Positions 4,539-59,300 of a DNA stretch of 64,000 nt are shown piece by piece (the stretch's first letter is position 1; the number at the start of each line of letters is the position of its first letter). The notes under the pieces are model-generated. The model was not told where the DNA came from and did not search any database. It saw only the letters and a list, made by a program, of their open reading frames with translations. Origin of the DNA: Amoebophrya sp. A120 (lineage: Eukaryota; Protista; Dinoflagellata); assembly GCA_905178155.1 (NCBI GenBank), contig CAJINV010000016.1, positions 1,455,386 through 1,519,385 of the forward strand. The letters run 5' to 3'. The position numbers were made by a program, and so were the translations under genes.

Positions 4539-7500
4539 TCACGTCGCAATCTTTCTCTGCAGTTCCGCAAACCCGGCCAAATACACCGTCAAGAATCCAT
4601 CCCCCAAAGTCGCACTTTCCCCCTCGCCACTCTCCTTCCCACCCCCGCCGCCCTCCGCAGCAGATGCTTTTTTGTTCAAATCGGTTAACACCGTCACGGG
4701 GACTTTCAATTTCGTGATCATCGCGGTGGTTTTCGGTGCGTTCAAAATCACCACGATCTCCAACTCCGCGATGCTGTTGAACGAGAACGTGAACTATCCA
4801 CAGTAAATTTCCCGCACGCGAGCAATGCAAATCCATGCGGTCTCTGCATGACAAAATCAAAACTTGGCTCCGACCCTAGTTTAGCATGACAAGTGTTACA
4901 CTCCAAATGCAAATTTACGAAATTTGTGATGCATCTTGCACATGTGCGGGAAATTTGTATTGCATATGAACTGCAACTCCTTCTTTTTCCGCTTCTCTGG
5001 CAAAGGGTCCAAATCCGGATGGGTGATCGACTTCACCACCTTCTGCGTGTACAACTGCCCTAGAGTTAACGTCTTCTGCGGGTTGAAGCTCGCGCCCTCT
5101 GGGATGTCGTCCGGCTCCACAGTCCGCAGCGTCGCGATTTTCTGTGCCACCGTGTTCATGTTCCACCGGGCGCCCGCGACCTCGTAGGCTGTATCCGTCA
5201 AGACCTTCGGAAGTTTCGGGTCCGTGCAGAACTTCTTCATCAACGCCAGTTCAACCAAAACCCGCTCTGATTTCTCGTAGTAGGTTGCGCGCGCTTCCCG
5301 GATTTCTCTCCGGCCGGAGTCAACGTTTTCTAGGTAAATCCGGTGTCGGTCCCGCATCAGGAGCTGCTCAACTATGTAGGCGAAGACGTCCACCGTTTGC
5401 GTGTCCGCTAGGATTAATTCGTCTAATTTTCCAATCCCGGTATCGATTTTCTTCGTCAAAACGTAGTATGAACTGCAAAAATATCGCACTCGTAGTAATT
5501 GCTGTCATGCATGACAAATCTCCCTCCTAAGGCAAAACAGCATTACAGATTTGATTTGTACTTGTAGTGCTGAGCTAATTTGTAATGCGATTACTTATAC
5601 ATTATATTAATGCGAAAAAAGAGGTAGACAGAGGGTCCCAGAGAGGTGGCCGAGAGGTAAAAAAGAGGCCGACAGAGGTAGAAAAGAGGTCGACAGAGGT
5701 GGAGAGGTGGCGCGGGACCCCGTTCGAGAGGGTCCGCGAGAGGGCGCGCGAATAAGGCCCGCAGTAAGGGCCCACCCTTAGGCGCCGCCTAAGTGGCACA
5801 GAGGGTGCAGAGAGGTCAAAAAGAGGGAGCGCGAGAGGTCGACAGAGGTGGCGAGAGGTGGCGCGAATAAGGGGCGACCTCTCGCGGACCCTCTTGGCCA
5901 CCTCTCGGCCACCTCTGTCGACCTCTACCCGCGAGTATAGCCGGACTATTAGCGGGGACCCCCAAAAGAGGTCAAAAAGAGGGTCTGCGAGAGGTCTGCG
6001 AGAGGGTAAAACACAAAGAAGCGGGCGCGAATCCGCATGGCACTGCCCATATTTGGCACTGCAGGCCATTCCTTCGCGGAGCTGTTTTGTTCGGCGCCTT
6101 TCCGCGCCATCCTCTCGCGCACCCTCTCGCGCCACCCTCTTGCGCCACCCTCTCGCGCACCCTCTCGCGCCACCCTCTCGCGCTACCCTCTCCCGCCGGG
6201 CGGCTTCTGTTCGCCCCCGGTGTTCTTTGCAGCTGCTCCCTGCGCAGAGCGCCCACAGGCGCGGGAAGCGCGCAAGTGGTCCTGCGGGTTGGCGAGGCGC
6301 AATATGTTTCGTTGTGCATAGGCCCGCGGGGTTGTGGTCCGATCGGCAAACAGTCTTGCCCCGGCCCAACAGCCTTGCGCTCCGGCGGCAGCCGGAGCAT
6401 GGCTGGTTTATACTAGTGCGATACTTTTGCAGTGCATATGTAATCCGGCGGTGTCATGTTCGCGTATTGCTTTTTCAGCATCTCAAACTCCAATTTCATG
6501 TCCTTAAAATTCGTCGACTCCAACGCGGGCAAAGCGTTCCACAAATCCTGCAACACCGCCCTCGGGTCGTTCGGATCCTCGGGCATAGAATATGAATTGC
6601 AAAAGGATCGTATTAGTAGTAATTGCAATACAAATTCGGTCAGCATGACATCAAATGGAATTTGTCATTTGTCATGCTGATTTGCTTTGGCAACGAGATT
6701 TGTAATGCATAAATGCAATCACTGCGAGTGCGATACTTTTGCACGGGATATAGAATACGCTTTGACCACCTCGATCGAATCCTCCTCCCCACCAGAACTC
6801 GTTTCCGCGGACAATCTCCTCGGCACAGGGGCTTTACTCGTTTTGCAGAAAACCATAGAAGGACTCGTCAATAGGAATCTTGCGTTCATTTTGAAGTTGT
6901 AAATGACATCTGTGTCCGGTTTCGCAGTGATGGATTTTATCACCTCTTCCGTCACTACGTCCGCGAAGGGGGGGATCAATTCCATCACCAAATAATCTTC
7001 TTCCGTCAAACCAATCTTCGACTCGTGCTCTAGGAGTAATGAGGTGACATTCAACAAATCCGACGTTCGGAGTTGCACCAAGTGCTCCTGGCAGTCGTAG
7101 TGACTCGTGAAATATGCATTGCAAAAGTAACGTACTAGTTTAAATTGCATTACAAATAATTTTGGCAAGAAGAAAAGTGGGATTTGTAGTGCTGTTTTAC
7201 CTTGGGAGGAAGATTTGTCATGCATATCTGCGATTACTACGAGTACGATACTTTTGCACAGCATATGAAAACGTCAATCGTCACCTGCGTGTCCGTGTCG
7301 TCGGTCAATTTCGTCGACTGCTCTTTACAGAACTGGAGCAGCGTATGGATGTGTCAGGATTGATCTCGACAAAGTTGAATTTGAAATACTTAATCTGCGA
7401 TGCATAAAATGCAAGGCACGAAGTGACTGTCTTGCAGGGATTGCAAGCGAGGCCGGTTGTCGGCTTGTTTGGGGTTTGGGATAGAGCTGCTAAAGTAGCA

Positions 7501-10500
7501 TGACAAAAGCGGTCTTCTGTCCCCAAACAGCATGACAAATTGGATTCCAGTTCTCGGAAAATTTGTCATGCGCTGCTTAGAATAAATTGGGCTCGAAACT
7601 GGTATCGATTTTATGCATTACAAGTCATTTCAACTTTGTCGATTTCAACTCTGACACATCCATAGAACGCCGGTTTCACCTGCCGCGAAATTATCGACAG
7701 CTGCTTCTCCGTCGCTTCCACAAAGGTCTTCATCACGAGTTTTTTCAAAAATATTGAGATTTTCTTCACATTGTTCTTGATCGAGCCATCTGCCGCAACT
7801 GCTAACTGTGCCGGATTCCCCAAACCCTGGATCTTCCCAGAGTAAAACGCGAAGTTTTCAAACTGCGGGAGGAGTATCCCGAGAACGAACAACCTAGCTA
7901 AAGGCTCACAAAGTTGCAAATCCAGCCCGATTATCCACAGGAAATTTCCCGCACACGTACAAAATGCATGACAAATTTCCCCAACTTAGAGCATGCCACT
8001 TGTCATGCTAACTAGAATCAAAGGCAAGCTTTGTCATGCAGAAACCGCATTTGTACGTGTACAGGAAATTTACTGTGAATACCGATCGTGATATCATCTT
8101 GCGTCACCGTGAACCTTCTCGCTTTGATCGTCTGTAAAGCGTGGAACATGATTTTCTGGATATCCATAGGTAAATCCAAGTTGCTCAGCCAGTTCAGAAA
8201 TTCCCCCTGGACGTACTCCCGGAACCGTTCCAAATTCGCGTTGCTATCCTGTGCAAAAGTATCGCCCTCGTACTAATTGCAATCTTGCATGACAAACCTA
8301 CCTTTTTACCTGAATTAGCATTACAAATACCATTTTTCTTTCTGATAAAATTTGTAATGCAATTCATACTAGTACGATGCTTTTGGTTTTGCAATGCATA
8401 GTTGAATTCCACGGTCAATTCCTGCGCGTCCTTCTCCCCGCCTGTGTTCGCGTTCGCCTGCATGAACTCGTCTTTGGTCAAATAGAAGTGGTGGGACAAT
8501 TCCTTAACCCCCCGATCCAAAGTGCACATCAAACCGGATTTCCGCGACAAATCCATGATGCTATGGACCACTTCTTCTCGAAAATACGGCTGCAGAGCCC
8601 ATTGGCTGAACAAGTGAAACACCCGCGATCTATCTGGCTGAAACACTTGCGACGGTTCTTTACATTCCTCCACTTCGTGCTTGATCATCACCTTTATGCA
8701 ATATAAATTTCCCGTACATATACAAGACGCATCACAAATTTCACCAATTTGGAGCGTAAAACTTGTTATGCTAAACTAGGATCGAAGCCAAGTTTTGTCA
8801 TGCAAAGACCGCATTTGTACGTGTACGGGAAATTTACTGTGGATAACCTTCAATGTTGCCATGAACAGGTGCTTCGTTCTCTCGTCGTCCAACTCCTTGT
8901 ACAGAGCGCCGACAAATCGGTAAAAGATTTTCTCCTTCTCCAAATCCCCGATGTGCATCGACAACTCGGCTAAATACGCGGGTTGCTGCTGTAAACTCCA
9001 AACCAGTTCCTCAAACCGAGGTAACAGTGCGGTTATTTTCTTCATGTTTGGATTGGTTTTCTTTTTCCCGGTTGATTTGTTCGACGTGTCTGGTGGCTTC
9101 ACGTTGGAGAGAAATTTCGTCGTGGTTTTGAACGAGCCGTCGACATCCGTGAACTTCTCCATCTTCCGCCTCTCAAACCCAGCGACGTTGACGAGAATGT
9201 CCTTCAAAAAAATCTCGTAATCCTTCTTCAACGACGCTTCGGTCTGCCCAAGTGCGATTTCCTTTGCGGACGGCGGTTCTTGCTTGATCAGCGATTGGAT
9301 CGTGGACATTTCCTTGATCCCCGCGCCCTCCCGCATCGCGTTGAACAATTGATCCTTCTCACTCGGGCCTTGGTCCTTCGCGTCCCCCTCGCCTTCCTTG
9401 CACTATCCACAGAAAAAGATCCATGCCCATCCAATTTGTGTTGCACAACATGCGTCAGACCCTGTGTCTGTAATGCAGAAATAGAAAATGGATCGTGGCT
9501 ATGGGTCTTTTTCTGTGGATATCCCCGCTTCGTCCGCAGCGTTGTCCTTGTCATCGTCCTCTGCCGCGGGCGAGTCATCCTCCTCTTCCCCCTGGGATTT
9601 CCTGCCCTGGCTCCCCGCTGTCATCGCCTCTATGCTGGACCACACCGGTTCGACTTTGGTCGGGACGTCGACAAACCGAGGCTCTTGGATCGCGGATAAT
9701 CCCAACCGCCCGCACGACTGGTCCCCCCAAGCGTACACTTCTCCGTTCGACATGATTCCCAAAGAGTGACTCGGACCGGTTGCTAATTGCACCACCGTAT
9801 GCATTGCAAATACGTCTGGGTCTGGGATGAAATTGTGATGCAAGGAACGGAATGCGGAGCGCCCTGTAATGCGCTGTTAAGCATGACAAGTTTTTCCATG
9901 GTTCTGAGTTGCGGAGTCCGCATGAGAAACTAACTGCGTTTTTGCATTGCAGGCAAGAGGAGGTCTCTGCGGCCACGCAATACAGATTTCAGAGTCATGC
10001 CAGGCTAGCATGACAAATCTCGCATCCGTCCAGACCCAGGCATTTTTGCAGTTGATACACCGTCCCGGGTAGACTGTTCAACTGCTCCGGCATCTGGAAT
10101 TTAAAAACGTCCCCACCCCACAATTGTAATGCAGATCTGCATGCTGAGAATGTTTCTCATGCGGAGCCCCATGAGAAGCGTTATCTACTCGCGTTTTGGA
10201 ATTTGTCATGCTCCAATCAGCATGGTATACTAGATCTGTTATGCTGCTGAACTATCTCAAACAGCCCTACACTACGAGTCCAAATTTGTCATGCGAAACA
10301 GCCGAAAACTTGTGGGTTTGTCTAGCCGATTTCCCATCTTGACTATGCGGTGGGGACGCTTTTACATAGGATACGGCATCTGGATCTGCAGCCGCATCAT
10401 GGATTTCGGCAGCCCGAGCTGGTGGGAATTGTTCTCGCCCCAAACGTACACCTCCCCTTCCTGCGTCACGGCTAAGCTGTGTGCCTCCCTGCACGCGACC

Positions 10501-13500
10501 GTTTTGATTTTCACCGACTCGCCGAGCTGCGTGAATTTTTTCGGCATCGTGCAGTCCATCGGCTCGCACACACACCGGTCTCGTCCCCACACGTAAAGAT
10601 CGTTCTTTTCATCCACAACTAGCGTGTGGTAAGCCGCTAATGCTAGTTGTGACACTTTCCGAGGTAAAGGCACCAAAGTCGGGGCATACACATTGTTCAT
10701 CGTGTTCAATCCGAGTCGTCCAAACCACCCGGCTCCGAACATGAACAGCTGCCCATCTTCCGAAACAATCCCCGTGTGCTGCAACCCGCACGTAATTTTG
10801 CTAGCCCTTATCTTGTTAAACCCATTCTCCTCCAATTTTCTCGGTCCGGGTTGTTGCCCCGAGATCACCCCCTTCCCCAAACCGAGACAGCCGTTTTGCG
10901 CGTCGCCCCACGTGAACGCCTGCCCGTCTAGGGAAACCGCGCCGGAATGGGTTTCCCCCGCGGAGCACTCCTTTGCGAGAACGCCCGTTGGGAGATGGAC
11001 CAAAACGGGGTTGTCCGTGGACTTCGCCTGGTTTATTCCTAACTGCCCCTGTCCACCCCGTCCCCAAGCGTACAACTCCATATTGGAAGTTATGCACAGA
11101 CAGTGCTCGTACCCAAACGCGATTTTCGTCACGGGAGAAGAAAATTCCAGCCTCTTCGGCAACCAAAGATCCGCGGTGGATCCCCGCTGCCCGGTCTGCC
11201 CGCTTTCCCCCGCACCCCACACGTACAAAGCCCCGCCTTCCGTCAAGGCGCCAGAATGCATCGCGCCACACTGCTATCAAATGCAAAAGTGTCTGGGTCT
11301 GGAAGATTCCGAGACTTGTCATGCAGATTTTCGATGATCCACGTCGTCTGGAATGCAGGACCTAGCATGACAGATTCTGTGAGATCCCTGCCATGCCTAT
11401 CCTGCATGAGAAACGTCCCCTCAACTTGGTCAAAAGTGGATAACTTTTGGCATTCATGCAACACAGATTTTTGCATGATCCAGCATTAGCATTACAAGTT
11501 GGATCCTTCCAGACCCAGACATTTTTGCAATGCATAACTGCACGGTTTTCACCTTGTAGGCGGATTTCTTGTCCTTGGGCCCGTCGTCCTCGTCATCCGC
11601 ACCACTTGGGCCGGATTTCCCCCCGGCAATCGCCCGCAGTTTTTTCTCCCCGTTGTCGAAGAATTCATTTGCCCGTAACGCGTCTGAGAAGAAGTTTTCG
11701 TCCGAGCTTATCGCCGATTGGTCAAATTCCGACAAAAACTTCGGCTTCGGGACATTTTTCGTGCTTTGTCCCTGACCAACCCTACCGTGTGATCCGTTTC
11801 CCCAGCAAGCTACCCGCCCGTTACTGCATAACGCAACCGTGTGGAACGGGCCGGCGGCGATTTGGAGAACCGGGCCGAGGAACTCGAAGTTTATCCGCCT
11901 TGGGATCGCAACGATCGCGTTGTCGCCGTCGTTCATGTAACCCAAAGGCGACCCGGTTCCCCACGCCCACAATCTCCCTTTCGTGGTCAAAACCACCGTG
12001 TGAAAAGCTCCGAGTGCTACCTGCTTCGCCGATTCGTCAAACGCGCGGACTACGGAGGGGAGAGGGCCGTCGAGACAATCACCGTGACCAAGCCGGCCGA
12101 AGCTCGCCGCGCCCCAGGTGTACAGCGTACCCCGTTCTGCGTCTATCCCCGCAGAGTGCGCTTCGCCACACGCTATTTGGAAGCTATGCATTGCAAAAGT
12201 ATCTTACTAGTATAAATTGCATTCGAAATTTTGGCAAGAAGGCAAGTGGAATTTCTGATGCTGTTTTTCCTTAGGAAAAACATTTGTCATGCATATTTGC
12301 AATTAGTACGAGTGCGATACTTTTGCACACCATAGGAGCAAACCGTGTTCAACGTGGCGCAAAGGTATCACAGAGAAACGTGTTAACGATAGCGGAATTT
12401 GTGATGCAGTAATGCATGACAAAAGGTGCCCAGATCTGTCATGCATAACATGCATATTAGGCAAGAATTGTCATGCGTGGCTGCATTCTGCGAAAACCGT
12501 TAACGTTAACACTTTTTTGCTTGATAAAAGGCTCCAGCTGGTCACGTTCGTTTGTGCCTGCATCACGCGGGAGCCGGTGCCTAATCTTCCGTTCGCGGTC
12601 GCGCCGGCGACGTACAACATCCTTTCAGCCGAGAGGATCATGCCGTGCCTAGCGCCGGCGGCAAAATCGATAGCCGGATTGTCGAGACCGAATTCATATC
12701 AAATGCAAAAATGTCTGGGTCTGGAAGATTCTGAGACTTGTCACGCATATTTTGCATGACCCAGGATGTCTGTAATGCACGACCTAGCATCACAGATTTT
12801 GAGAGGGCTTCCTGATGCCTACTCCGCATGACAAACGCCCTCCCCGCGTAACACAAACTAGACTCCTCTTGCTGGACACGCAATACAAAATTTTCTAGAG
12901 TCCAAAGTTAGCATCACAAGTCCCAATCTTCTAGACCCAGACATTTTTGCATTTGATAATTCCGGGATTTTTCGGGCCGTCTTCACGTCGTCTCTGGGGG
13001 TGTGAAGGTTGTGATGCGGAACTTGACATAGACATGATAGATAGGAACATAATTTTGTTATGCACAAAGCAAGGAAATAATAAAACGCAAAACACAAAGT
13101 ACTGATGCCCGAAGCCCAGCTGCCCATCGGAATTGCATCCCCACGCGTAGACCTCGTTATTGATCGTCAAAGCGAAAGAGAAATCTGCTCCGGCCGTTAT
13201 TCTCAATACCAATCGCGGTATCGAGACATGTAGCGGGTACGGCGCGTTCCAGGGGTCCTCAATCTCCGCGCCCTCTCCTCCCAGCGCCGGGTCTGGCTGC
13301 GCCAACCTCCCTCGAATTCCAAATCCCCAGCCAATCACGTACCCGCCGTAGGCCTCGGGGGAGTTTTTCACTAGAGCCAGCGCGTGGTTCCCCGAAGACG
13401 CGATCTGGTAGATTTTGCACCGGTATCCTATGCAAAAGTAATATCGCACTCGTTCGTAGTAATCGCAGTCATGCATTACAAATCTTTTTTTATGGTAAAC

Positions 13501-13863
13501 CCGCATGAGAAATTCCCTCTGTCATGCTAAGCTAAAATGGATCTTTATTGCAATTCCAATTACGTACTAGAACTAGAAGTACGATACTTTTGCAGTTCAT
13601 AATCGGTTGGGCAAAACCCCAGAAGAAGATGAGCTATCCTCCTGTTTCGCCTGCAGGATTTCCTTCACTTTTGTGTTGATGCCGAATTTCAGATTTTGGA
13701 GTTCGGTGATGCGGTTGAAGAGCTGCTTGTCGTCTTGAAACATGTTGTTTTGGTTTTTTCCAAACGCGTAAATCTTCTCCGATTTACCGCCAATCACGAA
13801 GCTGTGCGCGGCGCCGACGGCCAGCTTCAGTGGGGGAGGGGGGAGCTGGTTCACGGTCGTCAT
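4539..13863 (-). CDS. RCC1-repeat protein with C-terminal IQGAP-like RasGAP-related and RasGAP_C domains (~1742 aa, 18 exons)
   Basis: Many RCC1 blades (e.g. VQCGAMHSGALTEGGALYVWGAGESGQTG, IACGEAHS...YTWGAASFGRLGHG), then IQGAP-like motifs (FEELVWSLQQQPAYLAEL, TLGQLYTQKVVKSI, ELQFTFS). Removing 16 introners (element + 5 nt) and one GT-AG intron (12994-13102) leaves 5229 nt in frame. Confidence 0.85.
4795..4966. mobile_element. Introner (non-canonical intron), family B, opposite orientation to other B copies
   Basis: Ends TATCCACAGTAAATTTCCCG...CGGGAAATTTGTATTGCATA; direct repeat (DR) TGAAC/TGAAC; excision gives ELQFTFSFNS. Confidence 0.9.
5467..6438. mobile_element. Introner family C carrying a nested ~0.8-kb GC-rich insertion
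   Basis: Ends TATGAACTGCAAAAATATCGCACT...AGTGCGATACTTTTGCAGTGCATA; DR CGTAG/TGTAA; excision gives PPDYVLTKK. Confidence 0.85.
5601..6407. repeat. Nested GC-rich foldback-like insertion inside an introner
   Basis: Flanked by TTATAC at 5595-5600 and 6408-6413; internal GAGAGG/CCTCTC inverted blocks and tandem CCCTCTCGCGC(C)A units at ~6110-6190. Confidence 0.6.
6591..6750. mobile_element. Introner family C
   Basis: TAT..ATA terminal inverted repeats (TIRs); DR TAGAA/TAGAA; excision gives KAYSMPEDP. Confidence 0.9.
7113..7265. mobile_element. Introner family C
   Basis: DR TGAAA/TGAAA; excision gives TIDVFTSHY. Confidence 0.9.
7344..7664. mobile_element. Introner family D (long ~40-bp TIR)
   Basis: TATGGATGTGTCAG..TCGACAAAGTTGAA / TTCAACTTTGTCGA..CTGACACATCCATA; degenerate DR CAGCG/GAACG; frame restored (VKPA(L/F)LQFCK). 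Confidence 0.85.
7932..8081. mobile_element. Introner family B
   Basis: DR CCGAT/CCGAT; excision gives ITIGLDLQL. Confidence 0.9.
8245..8400. mobile_element. Introner family C
   Basis: DR GTTGC/GTTGA; excision gives VEFNANLER. Confidence 0.88.
8695..8845. mobile_element. Introner family B
   Basis: DR ACCTT/ACCTT; excision gives TLKVMIKHE. Confidence 0.9.
9404..9521. mobile_element. Introner family E
   Basis: TIR TATCCACAGAAAAAGA(T/C)CCAT; degenerate DR TGCAC/TCCCC; frame restored (DEAGKEGEG). Confidence 0.82.
9798..10057. mobile_element. Introner family A
   Basis: TIR contains GTCTGGGTCTGG; DR CACCG/CACCG; excision gives LPGTVVQLATGPSH. Confidence 0.9.
10093..10373. mobile_element. Introner with altered left terminus and 11-bp direct repeat
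   Basis: Subterminal inverted repeat AAAACGTCCCCACC / GGTGGGGACGCTTTT; CGGCATCTGGA at 10088-10098 and 10374-10384; excision gives QIQMPEQLN. Confidence 0.82.
11275..11536. mobile_element. Introner family A
   Basis: DR ACTGC/ACTGC; excision rebuilds the RCC1 motif VKTVQCGAMHS. Confidence 0.92.
12185..12334. mobile_element. Introner family C
   Basis: DR GAAGC/GGAGC; excision gives TVC(S/F)QIACGEAHS. Confidence 0.88.
12366..12526. mobile_element. Introner family F
   Basis: TIR TATCA..GTGTTAAC; DR AAAGG/AAAGG; excision gives SWSLCATLN. Confidence 0.88.
12697..12958. mobile_element. Introner family A
   Basis: DR ATTCA/ATTCC; excision gives KIPEFGLDN. Confidence 0.9.
13424..13601. mobile_element. 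Introner family C
   Basis: DR ACCGG/ATCGG; excision gives LPNRCKIYQIA. Confidence 0.88.
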
Positions 13864-14769
13864 TTTGACGATCGATGGTTGGGTTTACAACTTGCAGGAA
13901 AGAGCCTTCGAGTTCGTTTATAGAAGACTTCAAATCTGCAAGATACGGCAGCGCTTCAATCGTGTCTCTTTGGTGTGTTTTACCCAATCCCGGCACCGGC
14001 CCGCTTTTTCGTTCTGCGCAGCTGCAGGTGCAGTGATGCGGTTTCCACAGCCGCACTTCGCGCAGGTAAAAACGCTGGAGGCATGTTTTGTATCTATCTT
14101 CAAGTTGAAGATGTAGAAGCTCTGAAATAAACTATCAGTGTTTGATCTCGTGGTGAACAGTTGATCATGGTGCTAGTAGCCTGATCTTCTTCATTTCCTG
14201 TAGCATCCTGCACTACCACATAGATACGTAGCCCTCGTCATTCTACTCCAGCACCCGATCTCCTCACTCAGCTAGGATCTGCGACCGACGTGAAGACTAG
14301 ATGTTCAATCAGTAGTCGCTGCGCCGGTCATCTGCTGCAGTAGGAACGTCGGCGACTCGGTCCAGCTAGTAAGCTGCACGCTTTCATCAGGTTTGTTTCC
14401 TGTCCATTTTTACTTCGGGAAAAGAGCGCCTCGTCGAAACACCACACAAGTGCAAGTTAGTCTTTTTCTCTGAAATTATTTGCTGTTCCCTCCGGAAGTC
14501 CTCGTGTATCAATCTTCCAAAGCAAAAATTTAACAGTAATTATCACGGCTAGAAGTTAGAAACATTGCTATCGGCATCGAACCACTGCACAAAATCAAAA
14601 CCTTGCCTAGAAATAAAATTATCGAAACTAGAAGCTATCATCAAAACAGAACCGTTTGAAATTATCCAAAAATTTTTCTGTGTAAAATCAGTTTTCGAAA
14701 AAAACACAGTCGGATTACATCAGTATCATTCATCTTCGTCGCCATTCCGCCAGCTTCCCAGCAAAATCT

Positions 14770-16560
14770 TCAAAATCCCGCAATTCTCATCTCCTGCTGC
14801 ACTAATGGCTCCTTCTCCGCAGATGGTTTTTTTTCGTTTTCCTCTACTGCCTTGCGCATCAAATCTTCCAACGTGACAATCTCAATTTTCTTCTCGACCG
14901 CACTTTTGTACTTGGACGTCAATTTCACGTCTTTGCCCATGCTATCCGTCTTCTCGTTCAGCAAGACACAGTAGCTCGTTTTCCGTGAAACCCCCGTTGC
15001 AACCTTGGCTCCGTAGGTCTCGAACAGTTTGGTGACATCCTGGATAGTTGCTTTTTCACCAATGTTGTTGTTGACCTTCACATTGCAGGCTGCATGTATG
15101 TTCATGTAGGTGAACAAGATATCACTGTCCAGCACACAACTGTAGTTGAAAAAACGATGAAAAACTACTGTACATCCTTTCCCCACGGAGTGGCCCCCGT
15201 GTAGACGATATTTTTCCCCTGGAGAAAGTTCTTTGGTGCTTCGAAAACTGTGGGCTCGGTGTCCAGCATGGCCGGGTTTTGTCTTGCGTAGAGTGCGTAG
15301 GCCTGATTTATTCAACATGAGGGAAGTGTAGAGCTTTGAATGCAACTGCTCATCAATGTCTTCCCAACAAGTGCACACTGTTCATTGAAGTTTTACTTTC
15401 AAAAAATGTAAGTTGTAGTACCACAAATCGCAGCTGCCCACTCGACAGTGGTCTTTCCGCCTTCTCGAAAGCTTGCCTGACCATCCAGTCCACGTATTGC
15501 CCTTCACTCGTGCACACTTCTTGGAACGTTTTCTCTGCGTGGCGGCCGAAATCTAGTTTTTCTGAGCCCTGCACCGGCCCGGAGATCTTCTGGGGAAAAG
15601 GCTTCTTCTGGAAGGAAGATTTCCTGTTGGTTTTGATAGCAATAACATGTTGCGAAGCTTTCATCTGCAATGATCCTCAAAGATTGTAGAGCTTCATCGA
15701 TGTATCAAATTTGAAAGAGCATATGATCATAAACATGAAAGGTCGTGACGATCGTGTTCATGAGCAAAAAGACGATACGCGCCATAGCTTCCTTTCCCGC
15801 CACTGTATCCACCTCCATAGCCGCCTTTTGATTTGTAGCTGTTGTTCCAGCCACCTCCTCCACCGCCGCCGCCGCCCCACGAGGATTTCCCCCAGGAGTT
15901 CCCGCCTTTCCCGTAGCCCTTGCCACCCCCACGCCACCCGCCCTTGTCGTTGTCGGATGAGGACCAATATCCTGTGCAAAAGCATCGCATTCGTAGCAAT
16001 CGCAGTCACGCATTACAAATCTCCATCCCAAGGCAAATCAGCATGACAAATTCCGTTTCTCGTGCTCAGCTAATTTGTCATGCGGTTTATACTACTACGA
16101 TACTTTTGCAACGCATAACCAACTGTTGCGTTTCCAAGCGGATTGGTTTCTTATGCCGTCGGGGCTGTCGTGGTTTTATGTTGTTGTATCATCATGTGGT
16201 CATGTTTTGTTTGTTAATCATTGTTCAGCACAACTTCGCAGTAGTAGACTTGAATTGCGTCGCAACAAGAACAGGATGAAACAGGTCTCAACTAGAATAC
16301 GGAATCTCATCCCCTTGCGCATACGGACTCACGGACGGGTCTGCGCCGGGTAGAACGGATTTCAAACCTCCCGCACCATGATCACCCCCTGCATTCACAT
16401 CAGAAGACGCTGAAGTGTCCACTTTTGCGGCGTTGCCAGCAGCGAAGCCAAAATTTCGTCGAGTAGAGCCGGATATCAACGGGTTGATTCGCTGCAGCGC
16501 TGAAAATCGGCTGCTGGCAGCTCGCGAAGAGCTGAGCAGCTGCACCGCTGCGGTTGACAT
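14770..16560 (-). CDS. BRCT-domain protein with mitochondrial-type presequence, Gly/aromatic-rich segment and ExoX-C-like FGxH motif (~363 aa)
   Basis: GT-AG introns at 16165-16300, 15624-15778, 15303-15421 and 15040-15173 plus introner 15968-16117 leave 1092 nt in frame. BRCT rebuilt: FLQGKNIVYTG...DVTKLFETYGAKVATGVSRKTSY...SKYKSAVEKKIEIV. Also LDFGRHAEKTFQEV...YVDW. Confidence 0.72.
15968..16117. mobile_element. Introner family C
   Basis: DR ACCAA/ACCAA; excision gives RNSWSSSDN. Confidence 0.9.
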
Positions 16561-17220: not shown

Positions 17221-18575
17221 TCACTGCCCCCTAAATCGCCCCTTGCGTGTGCGCCGCGGATCAGCGGTTGCAGTGCTGCCTTTCGACTTCTTGCCGTAGC
17301 CAGAACCCGACTCTGACTCCTCTACTGCAACTGATTCTCCCTCACTTTCCCTGCTACTTTTCTTCCCCCTCCCACCGGAACTACTTTCAAAGTTCACAGA
17401 GCCATGGTCCTTTCTATCGGAAGAAGAGGAGGAGGAGGAGGAACTGTGGCTGCTACCACCGGAGGTTTCATTGTCTTCATGATCGTGCCCGCGCTTCGTA
17501 GTGCTACCGCTTTCGCCCTCGGAAGTTGAAGAGGATTTGGATCGCGACGAAGATGCGCCACTAGATGAAGAAGCGGATTCCTGTTCAGGAGAACTTCTAC
17601 TTGTCCTTGAACTCGACGGGACTTTGTGCAGGTATTTCGACTGGTTATGATCCTCGTCGTGGTCTTCCACGTCGGAGTGATGACCTCGACTAGTACCATG
17701 CCTCTCCTCATCATCGTGATCCACCTTCGCGGCCTTCGGCGCTCTGGTCGCGTATTTCGAAGGCACCCTCGGTATTGTATGCGGCTGACTTGCGTCCATG
17801 CCGGGTGGGAAAGGATTTCCATCCTGGGGCACGTATTGCATCATGTGGTGGACCGCCCAAACGAGGAAGAGAATGGAGGAGGAAGCGACGGCTAGCGTGA
17901 AGTTCTTCTGCCCGGCCTCGCGGGTCAGCACTTTTGAATGAGGAGTCTGGAAGTGCCTGTGAAGGTGGTTGCCTTGATATTGCGCGATAAGACCGTAGAA
18001 CTAGAAGGTTATTACATTTGCGATAAAAGCAAGACAGAAACAGTTCCTCATGTGTAAATTGCAACAGCAGTAAAGGCAAGAACCACGCATAAGTAAATTC
18101 TACATGAGCGCGCCTATCCACCAGATAAAGGGTGGGCAAAAAATCCCGAGACAGCAGATCCATTTTTGCACCGCTGGGTCGTCCTCCTCGTAGAGCGCAA
18201 GTCGGTCCTTGAGCTTCATGCGGGAGCTCGGTAATTGCCCGGAACTGGATTCAGAGGAGGCGAACTGGTATTTTTGGTGGGATGAATTTCAATTTTCTGT
18301 ATTGCAAAACGGCAGGAGACACTGGCATCTTAAAGTGAAGGGCTTCTAGTTGTTCTGCATGACAAGTAAGCAAAACTCACCTTTGGCAGCTCCATCTCAA
18401 CACCAGAGCCGAAAACCTGTGGTATCCAGGAAAAAACAGCCATCCCCATCCAATTTGTCATGCAAAACATACATAAAATCCACTATTTGTCATGCAAAAA
18501 ATGGATGGGGATGGGTGTTTTTTCCTGGATATGTGGCACAGGTGGCTCGTAGCTTATGCGATCGTAGGAGACCAT
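17221..18575 (-). CDS. Small membrane protein with Cys-rich TM segment and Ser/His-rich tail (~325 aa)
   Basis: Removing introner 18423-18531 and GT-AG introns 18265-18380 and 17957-18103 leaves 978 nt in frame; TM segments WICCLGIFCPPFIWWIGALM and FTLAVASSSILFLVWAV. Confidence 0.62.
18423..18531. mobile_element. Introner family E (near-palindromic, 109 bp)
   Basis: TATCCAGGAAAAAACA.CCATCCCCATCC / GGATGGGGATGG.TGTTTTTTCCTGGATA; DR TGTGG/TGTGG; excision gives PPVPQVFGS. Confidence 0.88.
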
Positions 18576-22966: not shown

Positions 22967-23520
22967 AGTCTATACCTGGGGCTTCTACTTAAGAAAAAGT
23001 GACTTTAAGTTTACAAGAGGGTTTGGAGCTGTGAAGATGAAACAAAAGTTTGTAGCTAGGTGGGACTTGCAAACTGAAAGAGAGGGGGGGTATGGGCAGG
23101 CCGTGTTAACGAGGTTGAAACTGACACTGAAAAACAGGAACTTGAATCATATCTGTGCGATAGAAAATTTGGATATCTATGCGAAGAGTCGTGTGTTGAA
23201 TGAGCATGAACATAAAGTCGTGGACAGTGGGAATATGAGGGACTGAGAGTGCGACGAAGCTGTAAAGTGTACGCACCAGCGACAAGGTGGACGACAGAGT
23301 AACACAACGAGTGTACGATCATGAACGAAAAAAATGTACGTTGAGTATGACGATGGAAGAACAACTACGCAGAAGAGCAACAGGAAGAACTACGACAAAC
23401 ACGAATTATGAGTGAAATAAAAATCAGAAGAATGATTTAACCACGAAGACTAGGCTAGCAACAAAGACGAGGAGATAATTTTTTTCATCTCCGTCCTCGT
23501 AGGCGGCACAGCGCATGTGT

Positions 23521-47703: not shown

Positions 47704-50448
47704 TCACGACAAAACATTTGCCCAATCTTCCAAATCATAGCGCACCCGTGACTATCCTGTGCAAAAGTATCGCACTCGTAGTAATCGCAGTCATGCATCA
47801 CAAATCTGGCTCCCAAGGCACATCAGCATGACAAATTCAGCATGACAAATTCCATTTGTCACGCTGAGCGAATTTGTAAGTATTGCAATTAGAATTACTA
47901 CTGCTACGATACTTTTGCAATTCATAGTGCCTGAATCGACCCTGTTTCCGGATCGAATTCGTGCACCAATCTGCCCTGATGCACCGGGTCGATCAGTTGC
48001 AGGCGATTCAAGTCCTCGTTTTCTATCGGCGGCGCGGACGGGCGGATGCTGTTCTCATCGTCGTGACCATCGTCTGGTATTAGAGCAGAGCCGGATGGCA
48101 GAATGGCTGGATGGCGTGGGTGGTGTTGGTGTGAAGATGTCGAGCTGAAAGTAGAACTTGCAAGGTTTTGATGATTCGAAACCAACGCCGTTGTGGTATA
48201 ATCATTTCCACCAATTCTTCCCATCCCAATCGCCTCCGCGAGGTTGTTCGGGAAGTTTTCCTCATCCTCGTGAAACCTGCTTAAGTCTTCCACGATGTAC
48301 TTCTGGCTGAGCACCTGGATCTGGCCGATCCGCAAGTAATCCAGATAGACCTGGTACACCGCGGTAAGAAGTAGAAACAACCCGGTGACAAACCCCATGA
48401 AAGTGAACGAAACCGCTAATCCGATTGCGAGGATGAGGAGGAGAAATTTGTTTTCTTGGAAATACTGCTGAAACAGCACCCGCGTGTTGTGCGCGCAGTT
48501 GTGAACGATGCCCCGGTGGGAGGCTGCCGCACGTCCTCCTCTGGTGCCGCAGCAGCAGCAGGAAAACAAGTTGCAGCAGCAGACCCACATCCTCGGTACG
48601 AAACAGCAAAACAGACTCCGGATTGCGAATAGCAAGCGGAATCTCGGCCCAAACCAGAAAAAGGGCCGGGGCGGGCCCCAGAAGAACCTGCCTCGTCGCC
48701 AGCGGTAGTTGTTCCAGCGGTATCGGTTTTGGAACCGTTGGTACTGCGGACGCAAGACGAACGCGCGCGAACCAAGCCAGGTCGTGTCTTGTTGGGGAAG
48801 CGGGTGCTGGTCATTGTTCTGCTGTTCATCCGCGGCCCGTCGAGTTTCCTGCGCTCGGCTCGATTCTGGTGTTGGCCCCACGACTACATTTTGGCCGCCG
48901 CTGGGAACCTGCCCGTGCGGCAATCTTTGCGCGATACAAGTAGGAGTTGCAGGTGACAGTTGATTGGACGCCGCAAGTATCCCATTCCCACCACCAATTA
49001 CAGGCCGCATAACGCTCGCCGAATCTTGTTGTGGTTGTCCATCTCCGCGCACCGACGGTACTCCGAAAATCAGCCGCTTCAACAACCGATACCAGCCGTA
49101 GACGCTGTAAACCAGTAGAACGACGCACAAAATCTCCACCAAACCATAGACGTAGTACACTCCCTTCCGCCCGTATCGCAAGAAAAAAGTGTTACAGTTA
49201 CACATTGTGTTGCAGGAGCCGCAAGACAGACAACCTTTGTCATGCAGGAAATGCTTGCGAGCTTCGTTTCCTTCCTGTTTTCCCTTGTGATCTTCGCAAG
49301 TTTTCCCTGCCACACAGAGGAAATTTGTGATGCAGAAACTCGAACAAATGTGTAACTGTAACACTTTTTTCTCGTGATAGCCCGAAGAAAAACTCTTCCT
49401 CGAAATTGTTCCTCCGAATCCAAGCGGGAAACGCTTTCCGGAGCTCATCGTGGAGAAAATAGATGTCAATACCCGCGGTAACGACGGCAGATAATATCAC
49501 CACCAGTTGAAACAGCCAGAAGTAGAAGCAGGATTTTTTCAGAATCTTCTTTCGAAACTCCGCCTGCTCCCGTTCTCCGTTGCTCGTCACGTTTGTAACT
49601 AACCTCAGCTGGTACTCGAAACTGCACTCGCAACAATGCGTGAACGCAGCGGCGTTGTAGCTCGTTCCGTTTACGCGCCAGGCATCCAGGCATCTGCGGT
49701 GCACGAAGCGGCTGTTGAAGTTGTGGCAGAGACAGGGGGAGATCAGCGCGTTTTCATCATTGAAACTATCTGTAGAAGTCGTGTTGTTGGTGTTAACGAG
49801 CTGCGTATCTTCCGTTTCTCCCTCTTCCAGCAAGCAGATCCGACACCGTTTTCTCGACTGGCGCGGCTGCTGTTGCTGCAATAACTCATCGCTGTAAACG
49901 CGAACTTGCAGGGGGTCGTCGTTTAAAGCGGCTTGTTGTGCATCTTCTTGTAGTTGTCCCACGACGAAACTGCTTGTTTGTTCGTGTGCCTGCGGGAACC
50001 CATCGTGAAAGGAGGTTGGTACAGCAGCGGGCTGACTTCTGCCGCGAGGTGACGACAAGGTGCCTCCGACTTGTTGGTCATTTTCCAGTAACGGCTGATG
50101 CTGTGGGTTTTGACTTAATATCTGTTGCTGCAAAACGCGCTGGAGTGGAAGCTGGGAGCTACGAGCTGGGTAGGAAAGGCTGTTGTTGATCCCACTAGCA
50201 TAGCCGTAATTCGGACTAGAAGTAGCGCTCGAGGACGTCCCAGCATTCGTCGGCAAAACAATTGCGCCGGAAGCAAAAATGTTTCGATTTTCCACTTCCG
50301 TCAACACTCGGTGGGGCTGCGCTTGCAGAAACTGGGGACGGCTATATTGCAAAGGTTGGATTTGGAAGTTGAGGCCGGGGGTGGACCGGGGAGGCTGGGG
50401 ATAATTCCCGTTGCCCGTTGGCGGTGAAGGTTGGTGGCTGTTGTTCAT
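47704..50448 (-). CDS. Membrane-associated RING-CH (RINGv/MARCH-like) E3 ubiquitin ligase (~784 aa)
   Basis: CRIC...LISPCLC....FVHRRCLDAW...HCCECSFEY (C4HC3) followed by TM helices; removing two introners leaves 2355 nt in frame. Confidence 0.85.
47753..47926. mobile_element. Introner family C
   Basis: DR GTGAC/GTGCC; excision gives IQARVRYDLEDWANVLS*. Confidence 0.88.
49174..49379. mobile_element. Introner family F
   Basis: ~30-bp TIR TATCGCAAGAAAAAAGTGTTACAGTTACACA; DR GCCCG/GCCCG; excision gives FFFGRKGVYY. Confidence 0.9.
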
Positions 50449-50971
50449 CTTCGTAAATGATGTGTTGGTCTTCCTAAATCGCCTCGAGCTTCCTATTAAT
50501 ACTGGCAAATGATGTCAATACCAGATGAAACGGACATTGTGGGATGGCAGGGGTAAACGTAAATTTTCCTTAGGGATGCTGTGCTGCAATTCTTGACAAT
50601 CAAAAAAAATCCAGCGGACTAGAAAACATGAAGGAACAATCGGACACCTCGAGAACGAAAAAGCAGGCCTTTTTGCAGAAGTTTTTCTCTCTCAGCACAG
50701 CCACAGCATTGTTGTTCCCTCGTCGTCACTCTCTCGTGTCAACACTCCTTTGAACAATAAAATGTAAACTATTCATTTTCATTTCGTATTAATTTACTAC
50801 GCCCTAGGCCTAGCCTTGACTGTACGTCACTCTGACATTGCCAGTTCTTCGACGTGATTCTTTGTATGCAAGGGCTTAATACTAGAGCACAAATCGCAGT
50901 AAAAAAACGTTCCATGTCGAGGTAACAGGGCGCCACAGAGTTGTCACATGGTTTCGTCTCTCACAACTATC

Positions 50972-52084: not shown

Positions 52085-53063
52085 TTTGATTTTCTTCGCG
52101 GTTACTGTTGCAAACAAAGTGCAGAAATTTCTTCAGTGGAAAGAGCAGCTAGTGCTGTGATGTGAAAACAGAGTCGCGAAAACAGACGAGTCTTGGATGG
52201 GAGCAGATGATGTTAACCTATCTAGAGTCGTGCGTGTTCGCTGGTTGTGTCGATGCAGCTGAAAAAGTAAAAGAGAACGATTCGTCCGTGCATTTTTGCT
52301 TTGTGTCCAAAGATCATCATCGAGATCAACTAGAACTACATTTTCTTCAATTTCTTCACAGTGCAGACGCAGAGCCCTTCTCATAAGCGTTAGGACCTGG
52401 ATCGCCGATCGCGTTCTTTGATGAAATCATTGTTTGATCTCCTTCTACTCCGCGAATATCACAAGTTCTCTGTGAGCAGCTCCATCGCCGGGATCATTTT
52501 TTTTTTCGCTTTATTCATCTGAGAAGATCTTTATTAGGTGTATTCACTTAGAGTTGGAACGATGTTGATCTGGATCTGTATCTCCTCTTTTATTTGCTCA
52601 AGACCGGGGTACGACAGACCTTCTTTGCGCAAGCGCGCTAGAAGGCCCCGCAGCTCCCCTTCGCCTCGCAATCGCAAAGCACTGAGACGCTGACGCGACC
52701 TCTGTCGTCGATCGACAGTTAGATTCCTGATTTTGGTAGTTTATGTGTAGGACAGCTATTATACAACAGCAGCACTCTTCAGTAAAGTAGTCACTGTGTG
52801 CTGTTTCAATGAGGCAAGCGCAAGCTTATCAGAACTTTTCCTGTACATTTACTCGGTGGCTCGTACTACTACTAGCTACTGATTAAGATTGTGATTCAAA
52901 AAACGTTTTTTTGAGAATGAAAGAATTCGTACCATACATACGCTTCAAGTTGGTTTTTGCGGTGCTCATGAACATGACCTCCACCTCCAACCAACCCAGC
53001 ATAATATATTGTCTCTAGCATATAAATTGAGTACAGATACAGTCTAGTCGTGTAACAAGTCTG

Positions 53064-53162
53064 TGTAACGCAAGCCGGAAGGAAAAGCATACTTACTACC
53101 AAAAGGTTTTGTAACGCAAGCCGGAAGGAAAAGCATACTTACTACCAAAATAAAGGTTTTGT
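53064..53162. repeat. Tandem duplication of a ~46-bp unit in the 3' flank
   Basis: TGTAACGCAAGCCGGAAGGAAAAGCATACTTACTACCAAAA occurs twice, identically. Confidence 0.85.
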
Positions 53163-53304
53163 TGAAAATGAATCCTATTTTTGTTTGCAGTTCTTCGTCT
53201 TTGGAAAAAAAAAACTACTGCGTTCTTCGATTTTTGATTTTGAAAAAATTTGCGCGGCGTCGGCTAAACCTTGATCTTCATTTAGACGACCGCAACTTTT
53301 ATCA

Positions 53305-56300: not shown

Positions 56301-59300
56301 GGCTGGCCTGCGCGTTCTGGTGACTGCCCTCCTTGTTTTTCGCCATGACCTGAATCAAATCCTTCCACTGCTGCCGGAGGTCACGGACCGTGGATTGAAC
56401 CCGCTCGTCTTTGTGCGATTTGTATTTCTGGGTGAAAACCCCGATTTTCGTTTTCCTCAGAATGTCCACCGTCATGTTGACATCGCGGAGGGCGTTGAGG
56501 AGGGGGAGAACTTCTTCGGGCGATTGACCTGAGTCCTCAATGTCGCGGATTACCTGATGTGAGTTGTGACTTTCACATTACAGATCACGAGAAGAATTGC
56601 ACTTCTGCATGACAAAGAGTTTTCTCTCGCGTTTGTCATGGGCAGCAAGATTCCATGTCGTAGCCAGTTGTATGTACCTGCAAAACTTTATTCAGCTCCG
56701 GATCCCTTCCGGCCGGCGGTGGCCCCACACTGGATGTTCTCGACGGCGGTCGTGGCAAGTTTGACCTCACCGGCGGCAGAGACGACTCCCGAGCCGAAAC
56801 CCGCTGCGGCGGTGGTCTCGGAACCTTTGGAATTGCCAGCGGTATCCCGGATCTGCCTCGTTGTTGGCCGTCGTTGCTTTCCTGGGGCGGCGGTGGAGGC
56901 GGGGGCGGAATGATTTGGTTGTTGACAACTTCTGGCGGCGTCGCAGTTCCGGAAGATTTGATTCCTGAAGCCGCTTTGTTCCGGAAAGACGCCATATTCA
57001 CTACGTTGTTGTTATTGTCTTTCTCCCCAAGCACTTTCGTATTGCCGTTGTTATTGCTGTTCTCCTCTTCTCCCCCACCAAACATGCCCATCACGGCGCT
57101 CCCGACGCCAGAAACTAAGTTTTCCACCACATTCGCAGCCGAACCAGATCCGCCGACCAACGCCCGATCCCGGTCGGATCTCTTGCTGCCAGTTTTCTTC
57201 TTGAAAGCGCCCTGGACGTCACCTCTAGCTGTGTCGTTGTTGTCGTCCTCAGACGCGGTGTCTGAACCGGAGTCCGCGTTATTTTCCGACGGTGAACTGG
57301 AACTGATGTCCTGTCTCGCCGGTCGTCTCTTATTTCTGTCGCCTTTCGAACTCTTCCTCCCTGTCTTCCCGTTTTGATTCCCAGTTTTCGTACTTCCATT
57401 CGGCCCAATATCCGGGCTGGCTTTCGATGTGCTTCTGTATTGTTTCCGTTTCAGCTGCGATTGTTTCGACTGTTCGTACGGAGTGGTGTCGTGATTCCGC
57501 GCTTCGGCCGCCGCGTAAGCAGCGAGAGCCGCGCCGTGGTCGTACTGCGCATGAGGGTTGGTTTGCTGGGTCGCGTACTGATTGTACATCGCTTCGGCGC
57601 CGGCGGTTGCCGGATGGTTGTACCCTGCAGCCCCGGCTGCCGCCATCAACCCACCCGGACCTGGGAAAGCGGGCTGGTGCGCACCAAACTGCGGACTCCC
57701 AACCGGGCCGCTGGCTCCGGGCGCGACCATTGGCATGCCCGTGTGACCCGGGCCAGCGCCACCGTAGAGCTGATTCGCCGCGGCCATTTGCATGGCCAGG
57801 GGGTTGAGGCCCATCGGGTTGGCGGCCGCCATCATCGGGTTAAGCGCCATCATCAGCTGTTGTAGTGGGGTTTTTGCAATACAGATTTTTGTTTTTTGTT
57901 TTTCTTTTTCATCTCGCAATCGCTCAGCTATAGTGGGTTTTTTGCAATACAGATCGCATCCATTCATCGCAACAAATAAATGTAAATCACCTGTTGCTGC
58001 TGCTGCAACAATAACTGCTGCTGCTGTTGAAACGCCTGCTCGTACTCCGTCAACCCGCCACCCACGCTCGGTAAGTTCAGTTGCGGTTTGTACAGAGGGT
58101 TCATCTCCGCCTGCGCAGTCACCATCTGATACACGGCGCTATCCTCGTCCAATGGTACTAGTCTGTCCCCTGTGTGCGGGAAAGAGGGTAAAGGCTCCAG
58201 CGGGATTTTCGTCGCCTTTGCGTAACCAGAATCGTCGATCAAGAAGGTGTTCACGAACCCGGCTACCACTCCATCCCGGACGAACGGGTCCATTTCCTGC
58301 ACCCATCTAACATGCCGTCTCCTCAACCGCTTCAATAGTTCGAAGAAAAACGCGTCCAAAGGATGTCGTCGGGAGAACCTCGTTTGATGTTCCGAGGTAT
58401 TATTTCCCGCCCCTCTTGTCTCCACATAAACAGCGTCTTGCTGCACGTCGTCGAACCGGAAGGTCCACTGGCCGGGGATGGGGCAGAGCGCTGCGATCTT
58501 CAAAAACGGCATGCCCCAGACCATGGAATATGGCGTTCTCAAACGTTTGATGCAAGAGCCGCAACAATCAAAGGCGCAAGCTTGCTGCTTTCGCATCACA
58601 GATTTGGCACGGATTTACTTAGAAGATGCTGCGTAGCCTTTCGGAGATTTGTCATACGAAGCGGCTTGATCATCCACCGCCCGGCTCAAAGTAGTTTTGC
58701 ATGACAAATTCATGTAACAGTTCAGAATGTAACGCTTGAGAACGCCATATGGAATCCGGGTAGTCTTTGACTTGGAAGTACTTGGCGAAAAGAACTAAGA
58801 CTGCTGCGTGGAGGAGAGGGAATTGGTCCCGGATGACGCAGTCGAGCATCTGGGTTTGCGGGTCGAAATGCGGCTTTTCGCCTGCGCGGACAAGGGGGCG
58901 CTTGTCGGAGAGCTCCTTTGTGTACCTGATGATAGAGAAACAGAAAGTGGTTTGTTGTATGTACAACATAAGTACGCAAAATTTGCTCATCATGCGTGGT
59001 TGTACTTCGTAGCTCAACATTTTGAACTGCAGCAGGAGAAGAAGATCTAGATCTTCCCCAGTAGTTTATTGTACCATGCAAACCGTTTCCGTTGCTTATC
59101 CCTCTCCTCATTCACTTTCTTCGCGAACCAGATCCTGCTGCCCGGTATGACTTTCTGCACTTTCTCCGCCAGAATCGCAATGTGTTCCTCCTCCCTCGGG
59201 TGTTGCCATCTGGACCCCAGTTCCTGGTTCGAGTAATACGTGAATCCCGAGCCAAAATCACACTCCTCACTGGTCTTGTGTGCTGTCCACCCACTTGGTA

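Follow-up and report, generated by a model that had tools for sequence, protein, structure and literature searches.

Transposon-like introns of Amoebophrya sp. A120: removal from RNA as element plus five nucleotides and direction-dependent conservation of their ends

Introduction

How do insertions that look like transposons come out of the coding sequences they interrupt? The question is raised by a 64,000-nucleotide (nt) stretch of the dinoflagellate Amoebophrya sp. A120 (GenBank assembly GCA_905178155.1, contig CAJINV010000016.1, positions 1,455,386 to 1,519,385 of the forward strand), referred to here as the window and numbered from its first letter. Its exons are interrupted by 32 introners, elements with mostly TAT…ATA ends that lie between 5-bp direct repeats. 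We report that these elements are removed at the RNA level as the element plus 5 nt, alongside the GT-AG introns of the same transcripts; that one fixed cut is strongly suggested; and that the conserved ends likely mark a hidden splice signal and a branch point for a modified spliceosome.

The introner system of A120 is already known. Farhat et al. 2021 (PMC7789003; statements from cited papers refer throughout to the parts of their text available to us) described inverted repeats in which TAT is followed by seven less constrained bases and then three or more A; direct repeats of 3–5 nt, with Fig. S19 giving one of 5 bp; and 29,850 repeated A120 introns. Within Amoebophrya, only part of the genus has such elements (PMC12005148). 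A preliminary description of the window rightly assigned its elements to the class of Farhat et al.; the newness that it implied for the 5-bp repeat and the TAT start does not stand, as both are in that paper. How the A120 elements are removed has been open since 2021, their borders having been reported as variable, and what we add is directly testable evidence on splicing. Neither a fixed cut nor polarised conservation of the ends was found described in the literature on Amoebophrya introns and splicing, a search with figures, subscription papers and two supplement files outside its scope.

Element catalogue and anatomy

The elements (positions 4795–58749) were catalogued independently: a scan for TAT…ATA pairs with inverted ends and a flanking repeat was followed by inspection of the sequence to complete the set, and the counts of the preliminary description were recovered. 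The termini are TAT…ATA in 30 of the 32; the two exceptions, read on the forward strand, are 10093–10373 (TCT…ATA) and 34660–34987 (TTT…ATA). The 5-bp flanking repeat is perfect at 20 elements and carries 1–2 mismatches at 12. Lengths range from 109 to 328 bp, with a single 972-bp outlier that carries a nested insert, and clustering at 75% identity yields 16 clusters, consistent with the "at least 8 families" first proposed. Strict pairs (TAT…ATA, inverted match of at least 9/12 and repeat match of at least 4/5) number 16 in the window, against 0–2 in each of 20 Markov-simulated windows. The terminal 20 bases are complementary at 12–20 positions, position 13 is A at both ends in 32/32, and the two elements that were folded form end-to-end hairpins (z −5.1 and −4.8). 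The host genes of all 32 elements lie on the minus strand.

The elements are listed below in forward coordinates; the inferred intron extends in every case from start −4 to end +1. The cut number counts the bases that the mRNA retains from the repeat copy coming first in the transcript, with ranges read from RNA-type contigs ("RNA cut") or from annotated proteins.

4795–4966, minus: introner, 172 bp, perfect repeat
5467–6438, minus: introner, 972 bp, interrupted by the nested insert below; repeat positions 1 and 5 mismatched; RNA cut 1–4
5601–6407, no strand: nested insert in the 5467 introner, 807 bp, 6-bp duplication, no terminal inverted repeat seen
6591–6750, minus: introner, 160 bp, perfect repeat
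7113–7265, minus: introner, 153 bp, perfect repeat
7344–7664, minus: introner, 321 bp, mismatched repeat; cut at most 4 (annotated protein)
7932–8081, minus: introner, 150 bp, perfect repeat
8245–8400, minus: introner, 156 bp, mismatched repeat; cut at least 1 (annotated protein)
8695–8845, minus: introner, 151 bp, perfect repeat; the sole element slidable to GT-AG
9404–9521, minus: introner, 118 bp, mismatched repeat; RNA cut 4–5
9798–10057, minus: introner, 260 bp, perfect repeat
10093–10373, minus: introner, 281 bp, perfect repeat; transcript 3′ end AGA, not ATA
11275–11536, minus: introner, 262 bp, perfect repeat
12185–12334, minus: introner, 150 bp, mismatched repeat; cut 4–5 (annotated protein)
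12366–12526, minus: introner, 161 bp, perfect repeat
12697–12958, minus: introner, 262 bp, mismatched repeat
13424–13601, minus: introner, 178 bp, mismatched repeat; RNA cut 4–5
15968–16117, minus: introner, 150 bp, perfect repeat
18423–18531, minus: introner, 109 bp, perfect repeat; junction least supported of the 32, no independent confirmation
25909–26059, minus: introner, 151 bp, perfect repeat; open frames only
26542–26793, minus: introner, 252 bp, perfect repeat; open frames only
27555–27805, minus: introner, 251 bp, perfect repeat; open frames only
31116–31265, minus: introner, 150 bp, mismatched repeat
32749–33013, minus: introner, 265 bp, perfect repeat
34660–34987, minus: introner, 328 bp, mismatched repeat; transcript 3′ end AAA, not ATA
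35788–35932, minus: introner, 145 bp, perfect repeat
35995–36302, minus: introner, 308 bp, perfect repeat
40040–40247, minus: introner, 208 bp, mismatched repeat; cut at most 4 (annotated protein)
43401–43658, minus: introner, 258 bp, mismatched repeat; cut at least 2 (annotated protein)
43828–43978, minus: introner, 151 bp, perfect repeat
47753–47926, minus: introner, 174 bp, mismatched repeat; RNA joint 47747>47927, cut 2–5
49174–49379, minus: introner, 206 bp, perfect repeat; RNA joint 49168>49380
58529–58749, minus: introner, 221 bp, perfect repeat; open frames only

For comparison we used 128 metagenome loci (L001–L128, 531 kb) of a related assembly, obtained by a pattern scan of metagenome contigs; none of them overlaps the exons of the window. 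The repeat was not used for detection there, and its 5-nt register is exact in 246/322 elements, with registers 3, 4 and 6–10 exact in just 0–7/322. The target repeats of these loci are near-random in sequence.

The window elements share the anatomy of A120 introners: a terminal inverted repeat (TIR) of 8–20 nt with TAT, 7 nt and a run of A; a direct repeat at the exon border, which falls within the 3–5 nt range and is 5 nt in all 32; repetition; and absence from mRNA, as represented by RNA-type contigs. They also have the hallmarks of miniature inverted-repeat transposable elements (MITEs) or other non-autonomous TIR transposons, being short, present in many copies and furnished with TIRs and a constant target-site duplication (TSD); the MITE-like character and the 5-bp duplications are as the preliminary description had them. 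The elements are non-coding, MITE-like inverted-repeat mini-transposons lying between 5-bp duplications in exons, and their ends and duplication suggest that they are, or were, mobile. No autonomous partner with the same ends was found among the long candidates in the window and the 128 related loci, and no transposase-type Pfam family among the 18 and 12 proteins scanned. A 2459-bp candidate in L032 is probably a chance pairing of two elements; it encloses part of a longer open frame without a Pfam match. The element pattern has 0 matches in viral contigs, and Rfam has 0 matches in the window. One A120 introner family has integrase-like open reading frames (ORFs) and is a candidate mobiliser (PMC12130899).

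Removal from RNA and presence in DNA

The preliminary description predicted that transcripts lack exactly the element plus 5 nt, and RNA-type contigs do so at 13/13 spanned elements. In run X3, a 3569-nt contig aligns with gaps of 1285 and 301 nt, which are matched only by the removal of 5 additional nt per element over seven and three elements, respectively. A 563-nt gap in a second contig equals the sum of four GT-AG introns and element 15968 plus 5 nt, so that the proposed coexistence with canonical splicing is seen within one contig. The joint 47747>47927 skips 179 nt (174+5) and the joint 49168>49380 skips 211 nt (206+5), each in 4/4 runs (X3–X6). One X3–X6 contig terminates in a minus-strand poly(A) tail. 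X3–X6 are presumed to be RNA; they skip canonical introns and do not cover a long gene, the 4508-residue (aa) one, whose uncovered exons leave 8/10 elements in 30200–50100 uninformative. The raw-read runs X9 and X10 yielded 14 and 4 reads, each only partly on the window. The raw RNA reads of X9 match almost solely the family of element 12697–12958, at 90–99% identity and with other flanks.

In the DNA-type run X1, introns and spacers are evenly covered; contigs cross the junctions at an even depth of about 19–32 with no differences, and one contig spans the entire 9404 element. No skip of element plus 5 nt occurs among the 15 of 1311 X1 joints displayed. DNA lacking the elements, named in the preliminary description as the sign of elimination of the kind seen for internal eliminated sequences (IESs), was looked for in DNA-type contigs, and the elements are kept there; other life stages lie outside these data. 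These observations support removal at the RNA level, and elimination from DNA is unlikely.

Reading frames and host proteins

Keeping an element breaks the frame or introduces stops in 32/32 cases. Removal of the element plus 5 nt gives stop-free frames over 15 (1607 aa), 7 (3885 aa), 3 and 2 elements, although the reading frame by itself sets the removal length modulo 3 and no finer. An automatic two-sided frame test chose the +5 class (modulo 3) in 24/32, and several of the eight misses are near canonical introns or ORF ends. The principal host genes and the canonical introns referred to in the text are as follows.

4542–13884, minus: host gene, RCC1-repeat protein P0001, 1721 aa, 16 introners; outer limits are those of stop-free frames
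12994–13102, minus: canonical GT-AG intron of the RCC1-repeat gene (P0001)
15040–15173, 15303–15421, 15624–15778 and 16165–16300, minus: four canonical GT-AG introns, in one transcript with the 15968 introner
30328–46004, minus: host gene, PAN/WSC-domain protein P0121, 4508 aa, 8 introners; outer limits are those of stop-free frames
32422–32652, minus: canonical GT-AG intron of the 4508-aa gene (P0121)

P0001 and P0121 are annotated Amoebophrya sp. A120 proteins with a 100% match to the exon queries, and they agree with the removal of element plus 5 nt at all 24 junctions tested (16/16 in P0001 and 8/8 in P0121). Two orthologues align gap-free over the 11 junctions shown. In total, 27/32 junctions are backed by RNA-type contigs (13) or annotated proteins (24); for elements 25909, 26542, 27555 and 58529, the support consists of open frames alone. 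A homologue search for one gene of a related locus, meant to polarise its mismatches, gave no match.

Where the cut lies

A perfect repeat cannot place the cut, and the information comes from nine imperfect repeats, four bounded by RNA contigs and five by annotated proteins (see the list above). A cut of 4 is the sole value that fits all nine, with a likelihood ratio of 158 against independent uniform cuts. This evidence, which we grade as moderate, strongly suggests that the cut is fixed, with 1 nt preceding TAT and 4 nt following ATA inside an intron of the form N-TAT…ATA-NNNN; the mRNA would therefore retain four bases from the first copy plus a single base from the second. If it holds, this is a simple rule for placing non-canonical intron borders in the A120 genome.

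GT…AG ends, as of U2-type introns, occur in 0/32 elements at the inferred cut and in 1/32 by sliding within the repeat. The earlier claim that sliding gives no GT-AG ends is correct for 31/32, the exception being 8695; sliding also produces GC-AG at 47753 (a position excluded by RNA), GA-AG at 27555 and AT-AC in four elements. No selection toward GT or AG within the repeat was seen, and codon scores, used to tell the exonic repeat copy, give no signal at positions 4–5 (4/10 and 7/15). An apparent A..C pairing of the first and last intron base, present in 8/10 A-starting introns of the window, was not replicated in the related loci (20/200 oriented elements) and is attributed to chance.

Direction-dependent conservation of the ends

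The polarity of the ends was analyzed in the related loci. To assign the transcript strand we used the codon usage of the exons, masking the repeat, a procedure that is correct for 31/32 window elements, and elements without 75 nt of flank or with a repeat match below 4/5 were dropped. When one end was left free in the search, 17/308 elements have a variant end triplet, and all 17 sort by transcript direction: the ten variants of the 5′ triplet all affect its third base, and the seven of the 3′ triplet all leave its first A intact (Fisher p = 5e-5, or 1e-5 with the two window variants added). With both triplets free, 19/339 are variant and 19/19 are sorted in the same way. The variant triplets are TAC, TAA and TAG only at the 5′ end and ATG, ACA, ATT and AGA only at the 3′ end; the window variants AGA and AAA both fit. 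Hence T-A (+2, +3) is retained at the 5′ end, where +4 varies, and the A at −7 is all that is retained at the 3′ end. In the inferred register, the donor-like U+2 and A+3 are invariant in 32/32 window elements and 339/339 related ones. Other positions of the inverted repeat vary about 4–5 times per position per end, compared to 0 times for +2, +3 and −7.

Since the families insert both ways about equally (53:44, 31:22, 23:22 and 15:15 in the four largest), the polarity belongs to the transcript. The pairing partners of U+2, A+3 and A(−7) vary, and therefore base identity, not pairing, is conserved. In the three terminal base pairs just one strand is conserved, and which one it is depends on the direction of the transcript. 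This suggests that sequence is recognized in the RNA, and not a hairpin alone; the earlier suggestion, read as removal guided by structure alone, is not supported as it stood. Neither a symmetric hairpin nor a DNA-level cut predicts such one-sided conservation. The conserved ends likely mark a hidden splice signal and a branch point for a modified spliceosome.

At positions 9–13 of the inverted repeat in L001–L128, deviations from the family consensus are fewer in the 5′ arm (10) than in the 3′ arm (27). This bias, noticed after the fact, may reflect a further signal at intron +10 to +14.

Proposed mechanism

We incline, by a modest measure, towards lariat splicing of the elements by a relaxed spliceosome, which predicts a lariat. 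The spliceosome would read N-U-A at the 5′ end, with U+2 and A+3 recognized as in the canonical GUA(C/U) donors of the A120 genome. All six confirmed canonical introns of the window start with GTA, five of them with GTA-C/T, and therefore N-U-A-U equals the A120 donor minus its G. The invariant A(−7) is the predicted branch nucleophile, seven bases before the 3′ cut, and this cut would be placed by its distance from A(−7), not by AG; the terminal hairpin may merely bring the ends together or mark the intron. An invariant A so close to the 3′ end would suit the needs of lariat chemistry. A fixed short distance from branch to 3′ end is known in the spliceosomes of Yarrowia and Trichomonas (PMC2483917), and A120 has kept U2, U4, U5, U6 and 83/89 spliceosomal proteins, with U1 undetected (PMC7789003).

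In its most specific form, a tentative one that we place a little short of probable, the proposal is that the A120 spliceosome, apparently lacking U1, disregards both the G of GT and the AG. U-A at +2/+3 and a single A would suffice, with the cut made six bases beyond this A, so that the palindromic TAT/ATA end could act as donor and branch point wherever, and whichever way round, the element inserts. Each end reads TAT or ATA depending on the strand; the element would thus carry both signals whatever its orientation or target, and this would explain its spread. The fixed cut and the three invariant bases narrow the question of removal to a 2′-5′ branch between intron +1 and A(−7). If correct, the proposal would show to what extent a spliceosome can do without conserved end signals, and by what means a transposon with no target preference can become harmless in exons. 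With no more than U-A and one A, this splicing code would be smaller than any other known, and it would account for the tens of thousands of introns that have "no consensus". Loss of SNRNP27K has been linked with U at +4 (PMC10581693), and SNRNP27K is undetected in A120 (PMC7789003). A connection with the A120 elements is possible; +4 is the variable position, so we do not use this link as support.

Several points weigh against lariat splicing at a fixed cut. X3–X6 are one sample of one study whose RNA status is guessed, no covering run being on record as RNA, and the A120 annotation may rest on the same RNA data. The cuts at 5467, 9404 and 13424 were read from the ends of contig pieces under a leftmost-joint convention, and a shared cut would arise by chance with a probability of 0.22 from the four RNA elements alone and 0.038 with annotated proteins. 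The polarity evidence is drawn from the related assembly, whose elements are at most 94% identical to those of the window, and not from A120 itself. GT-AG at the inferred cut occurs in 6/224 of the related elements, matching chance, and no constraint is seen at intron +1, −2 or −1, which would take a spliceosome far from its usual behaviour. A cruder strand call from open-frame length puts 4/18 variants on the wrong side; the two calls agree in just 221/339, and neighbouring elements side with the codon call. As to a branch adenosine, A(−7) is invariant and the bases before it are variable (TTG, AGG, TGC), a context that often fails to fit the U2 pairing motif. No branch or lariat was observed in the assembled contigs, the only data covering the exons. 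An A at −7 is present in 2/6 canonical introns of the window, and in the predicted hairpin A(−7) pairs with +4, so that the hairpin would have to open.

Alternative explanations

A separate, non-spliceosomal RNA pathway, composed of a nuclease and a ligase or of a novel ribonucleoprotein, might instead read U-A and A on the hairpin and cut at fixed offsets. We regard it as possible and rather unlikely. The free +1, −2 and −1 bases, the strong end-to-end hairpins and the undetected U1 (PMC7789003) suit it, as does the precedent of euglenid TIR/TSD introns, which exit as circles by an unexplained route (PMC11282704). The conserved bases, however, equal +2/+3 of A120's own canonical donors, and one invariant A near the 3′ end suits lariat chemistry; no dedicated enzyme turned up, and no search aimed at one was made. 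Guidance by the hairpin only, with a cut anywhere within the repeat, would agree with the strong hairpins, the near-random target repeats and the legend of Fig. 3 of Farhat et al., which calls the splice sites variable (PMC7789003). It is improbable, as the terminal pairs tolerate breaks on one side only, according to transcript direction (19/19), and a single cut fits all nine informative repeats.

Two further explanations appear very improbable. Elimination from DNA in some life stage, as for ciliate IESs, with RNA copied from a clean template, is suggested by the alveolate host, the transposon-like ends and the precise removal that leaves one repeat copy; moreover, contigs drop rare variants, and the X1 joints displayed are a small part of the total. 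Against this, X1 contigs cross the junctions at even depth, one of them across the whole 9404 element, the displayed joints contain no skip, and the constraint tracks transcript direction although elements sit in both orientations. Hairpins between short direct repeats are a classic substrate for template switching, and the elements have this layout, so that the template might be skipped at the direct repeat by reverse transcriptase, as an artefact, or by RNA polymerase. Yet all 32 elements would destroy the protein if kept, the orthologues are gap-free at the 11 junctions shown, removal is exact at 9404, where two repeat mismatches adjoin the cut, and the one-sided base conservation is not predicted by skipping.

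Comparison with known systems

Like the A120 introners of Farhat et al. (PMC7789003), the elements occur in A120, have inverted repeats, fall into many families, have RNA support and sit in genes that also contain canonical introns. They differ in that the paper gives direct repeats of 3–5 nt and splice sites that are variable or unknown relative to the hairpin, whereas the window elements have a strictly 5-nt repeat, one fitting cut and direction-dependent end conservation. The A120 families of Gozashti et al. 2025 (PMC12130899) are likewise mostly TIR DNA elements with splice sites taken from the target duplication; in contrast, the annotated ends are scattered, duplications are 2–5 nt, and no fixed cut or branch A appears in the 22 of 58 A120 rows available.

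In Fritillaria borealis, MITE-derived TIR/TSD introns with non-GT-AG ends are handled by an adapted U2 spliceosome (PMC11282704, PMC13326754), a case that shows the U2 spliceosome to be able to adapt to MITE-derived non-canonical introns (PMC11282704). Its preferred ends are AG-AC/AG-AT and its U1 is conserved, whereas +1, −2 and −1 are free and U1 is undetected in A120. Euglenid nonconventional introns also have end-pairing inverted repeats, TSD-like repeats, GT-AG introns alongside and an open mechanism; they differ in their CAG/CTG pairing, pyrimidine-purine junctions and circular products (PMC11282704), compared to the TAT/ATA ends and free junction bases of A120. With TAT/ATA ends in place of CAG/CTG pairing, and with junction bases not restricted to pyrimidine-purine, the window elements do not belong to this class.

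A branch A at a set short distance is present at −6 in Yarrowia and −8 in Trichomonas (counted from the given motifs), with Giardia likewise at a fixed distance, but introns of these organisms keep GT, AG and a TACTAAC-like motif (PMC2483917). Group III introns resemble the elements in the U at +2, the free +1 and a consensus branch A at −8; they are plastid, U-rich derivatives of group II introns and not transposons (PMC3534033). Assignment to group III (5′ NUNNG, bulged A at −8 and a domain VI stem) was also rejected: G+5 is present in 15/32 window and 75/224 related elements, the A is at −7, and Rfam gave no match.

Additional observations

An internal motif, GCAT(G/T/C)ACA(A/G)A, is common to 30/32 elements. 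Its strict matches lie inside elements in 68/69 cases, the elements making up 11% of the window, and its orientations are balanced (34:34 in the window and 212:232 in the related loci), as would be expected of a DNA-binding (transposase) site or of stem arms. Two apparently canonical GT-AG introns, at ~56554–56677 and ~57857–57990, carry the motif without TAT/ATA ends; they may be old introners turned canonical, the 3′ border of the first being uncertain. In four loci of the related assembly (L027, L042, L045 and L068) there are 12–15 elements per 10 kb, and exons are reduced to a few tens of bases.

The 807-bp insert (5601–6407) is removed along with its host introner, 5467. It contains internal GA-rich repeats and, judged by eye, a GC-rich hairpin near one end; its depth in X1 is high, and it is therefore a second kind of repeat. 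The 4508-aa PAN/WSC protein (30328–46004) has no other match among the longer candidates scored. Short duplicated stretches were noticed by eye in non-coding DNA at ~23520–23575 together with ~24563–24612, and at ~53060–53150.

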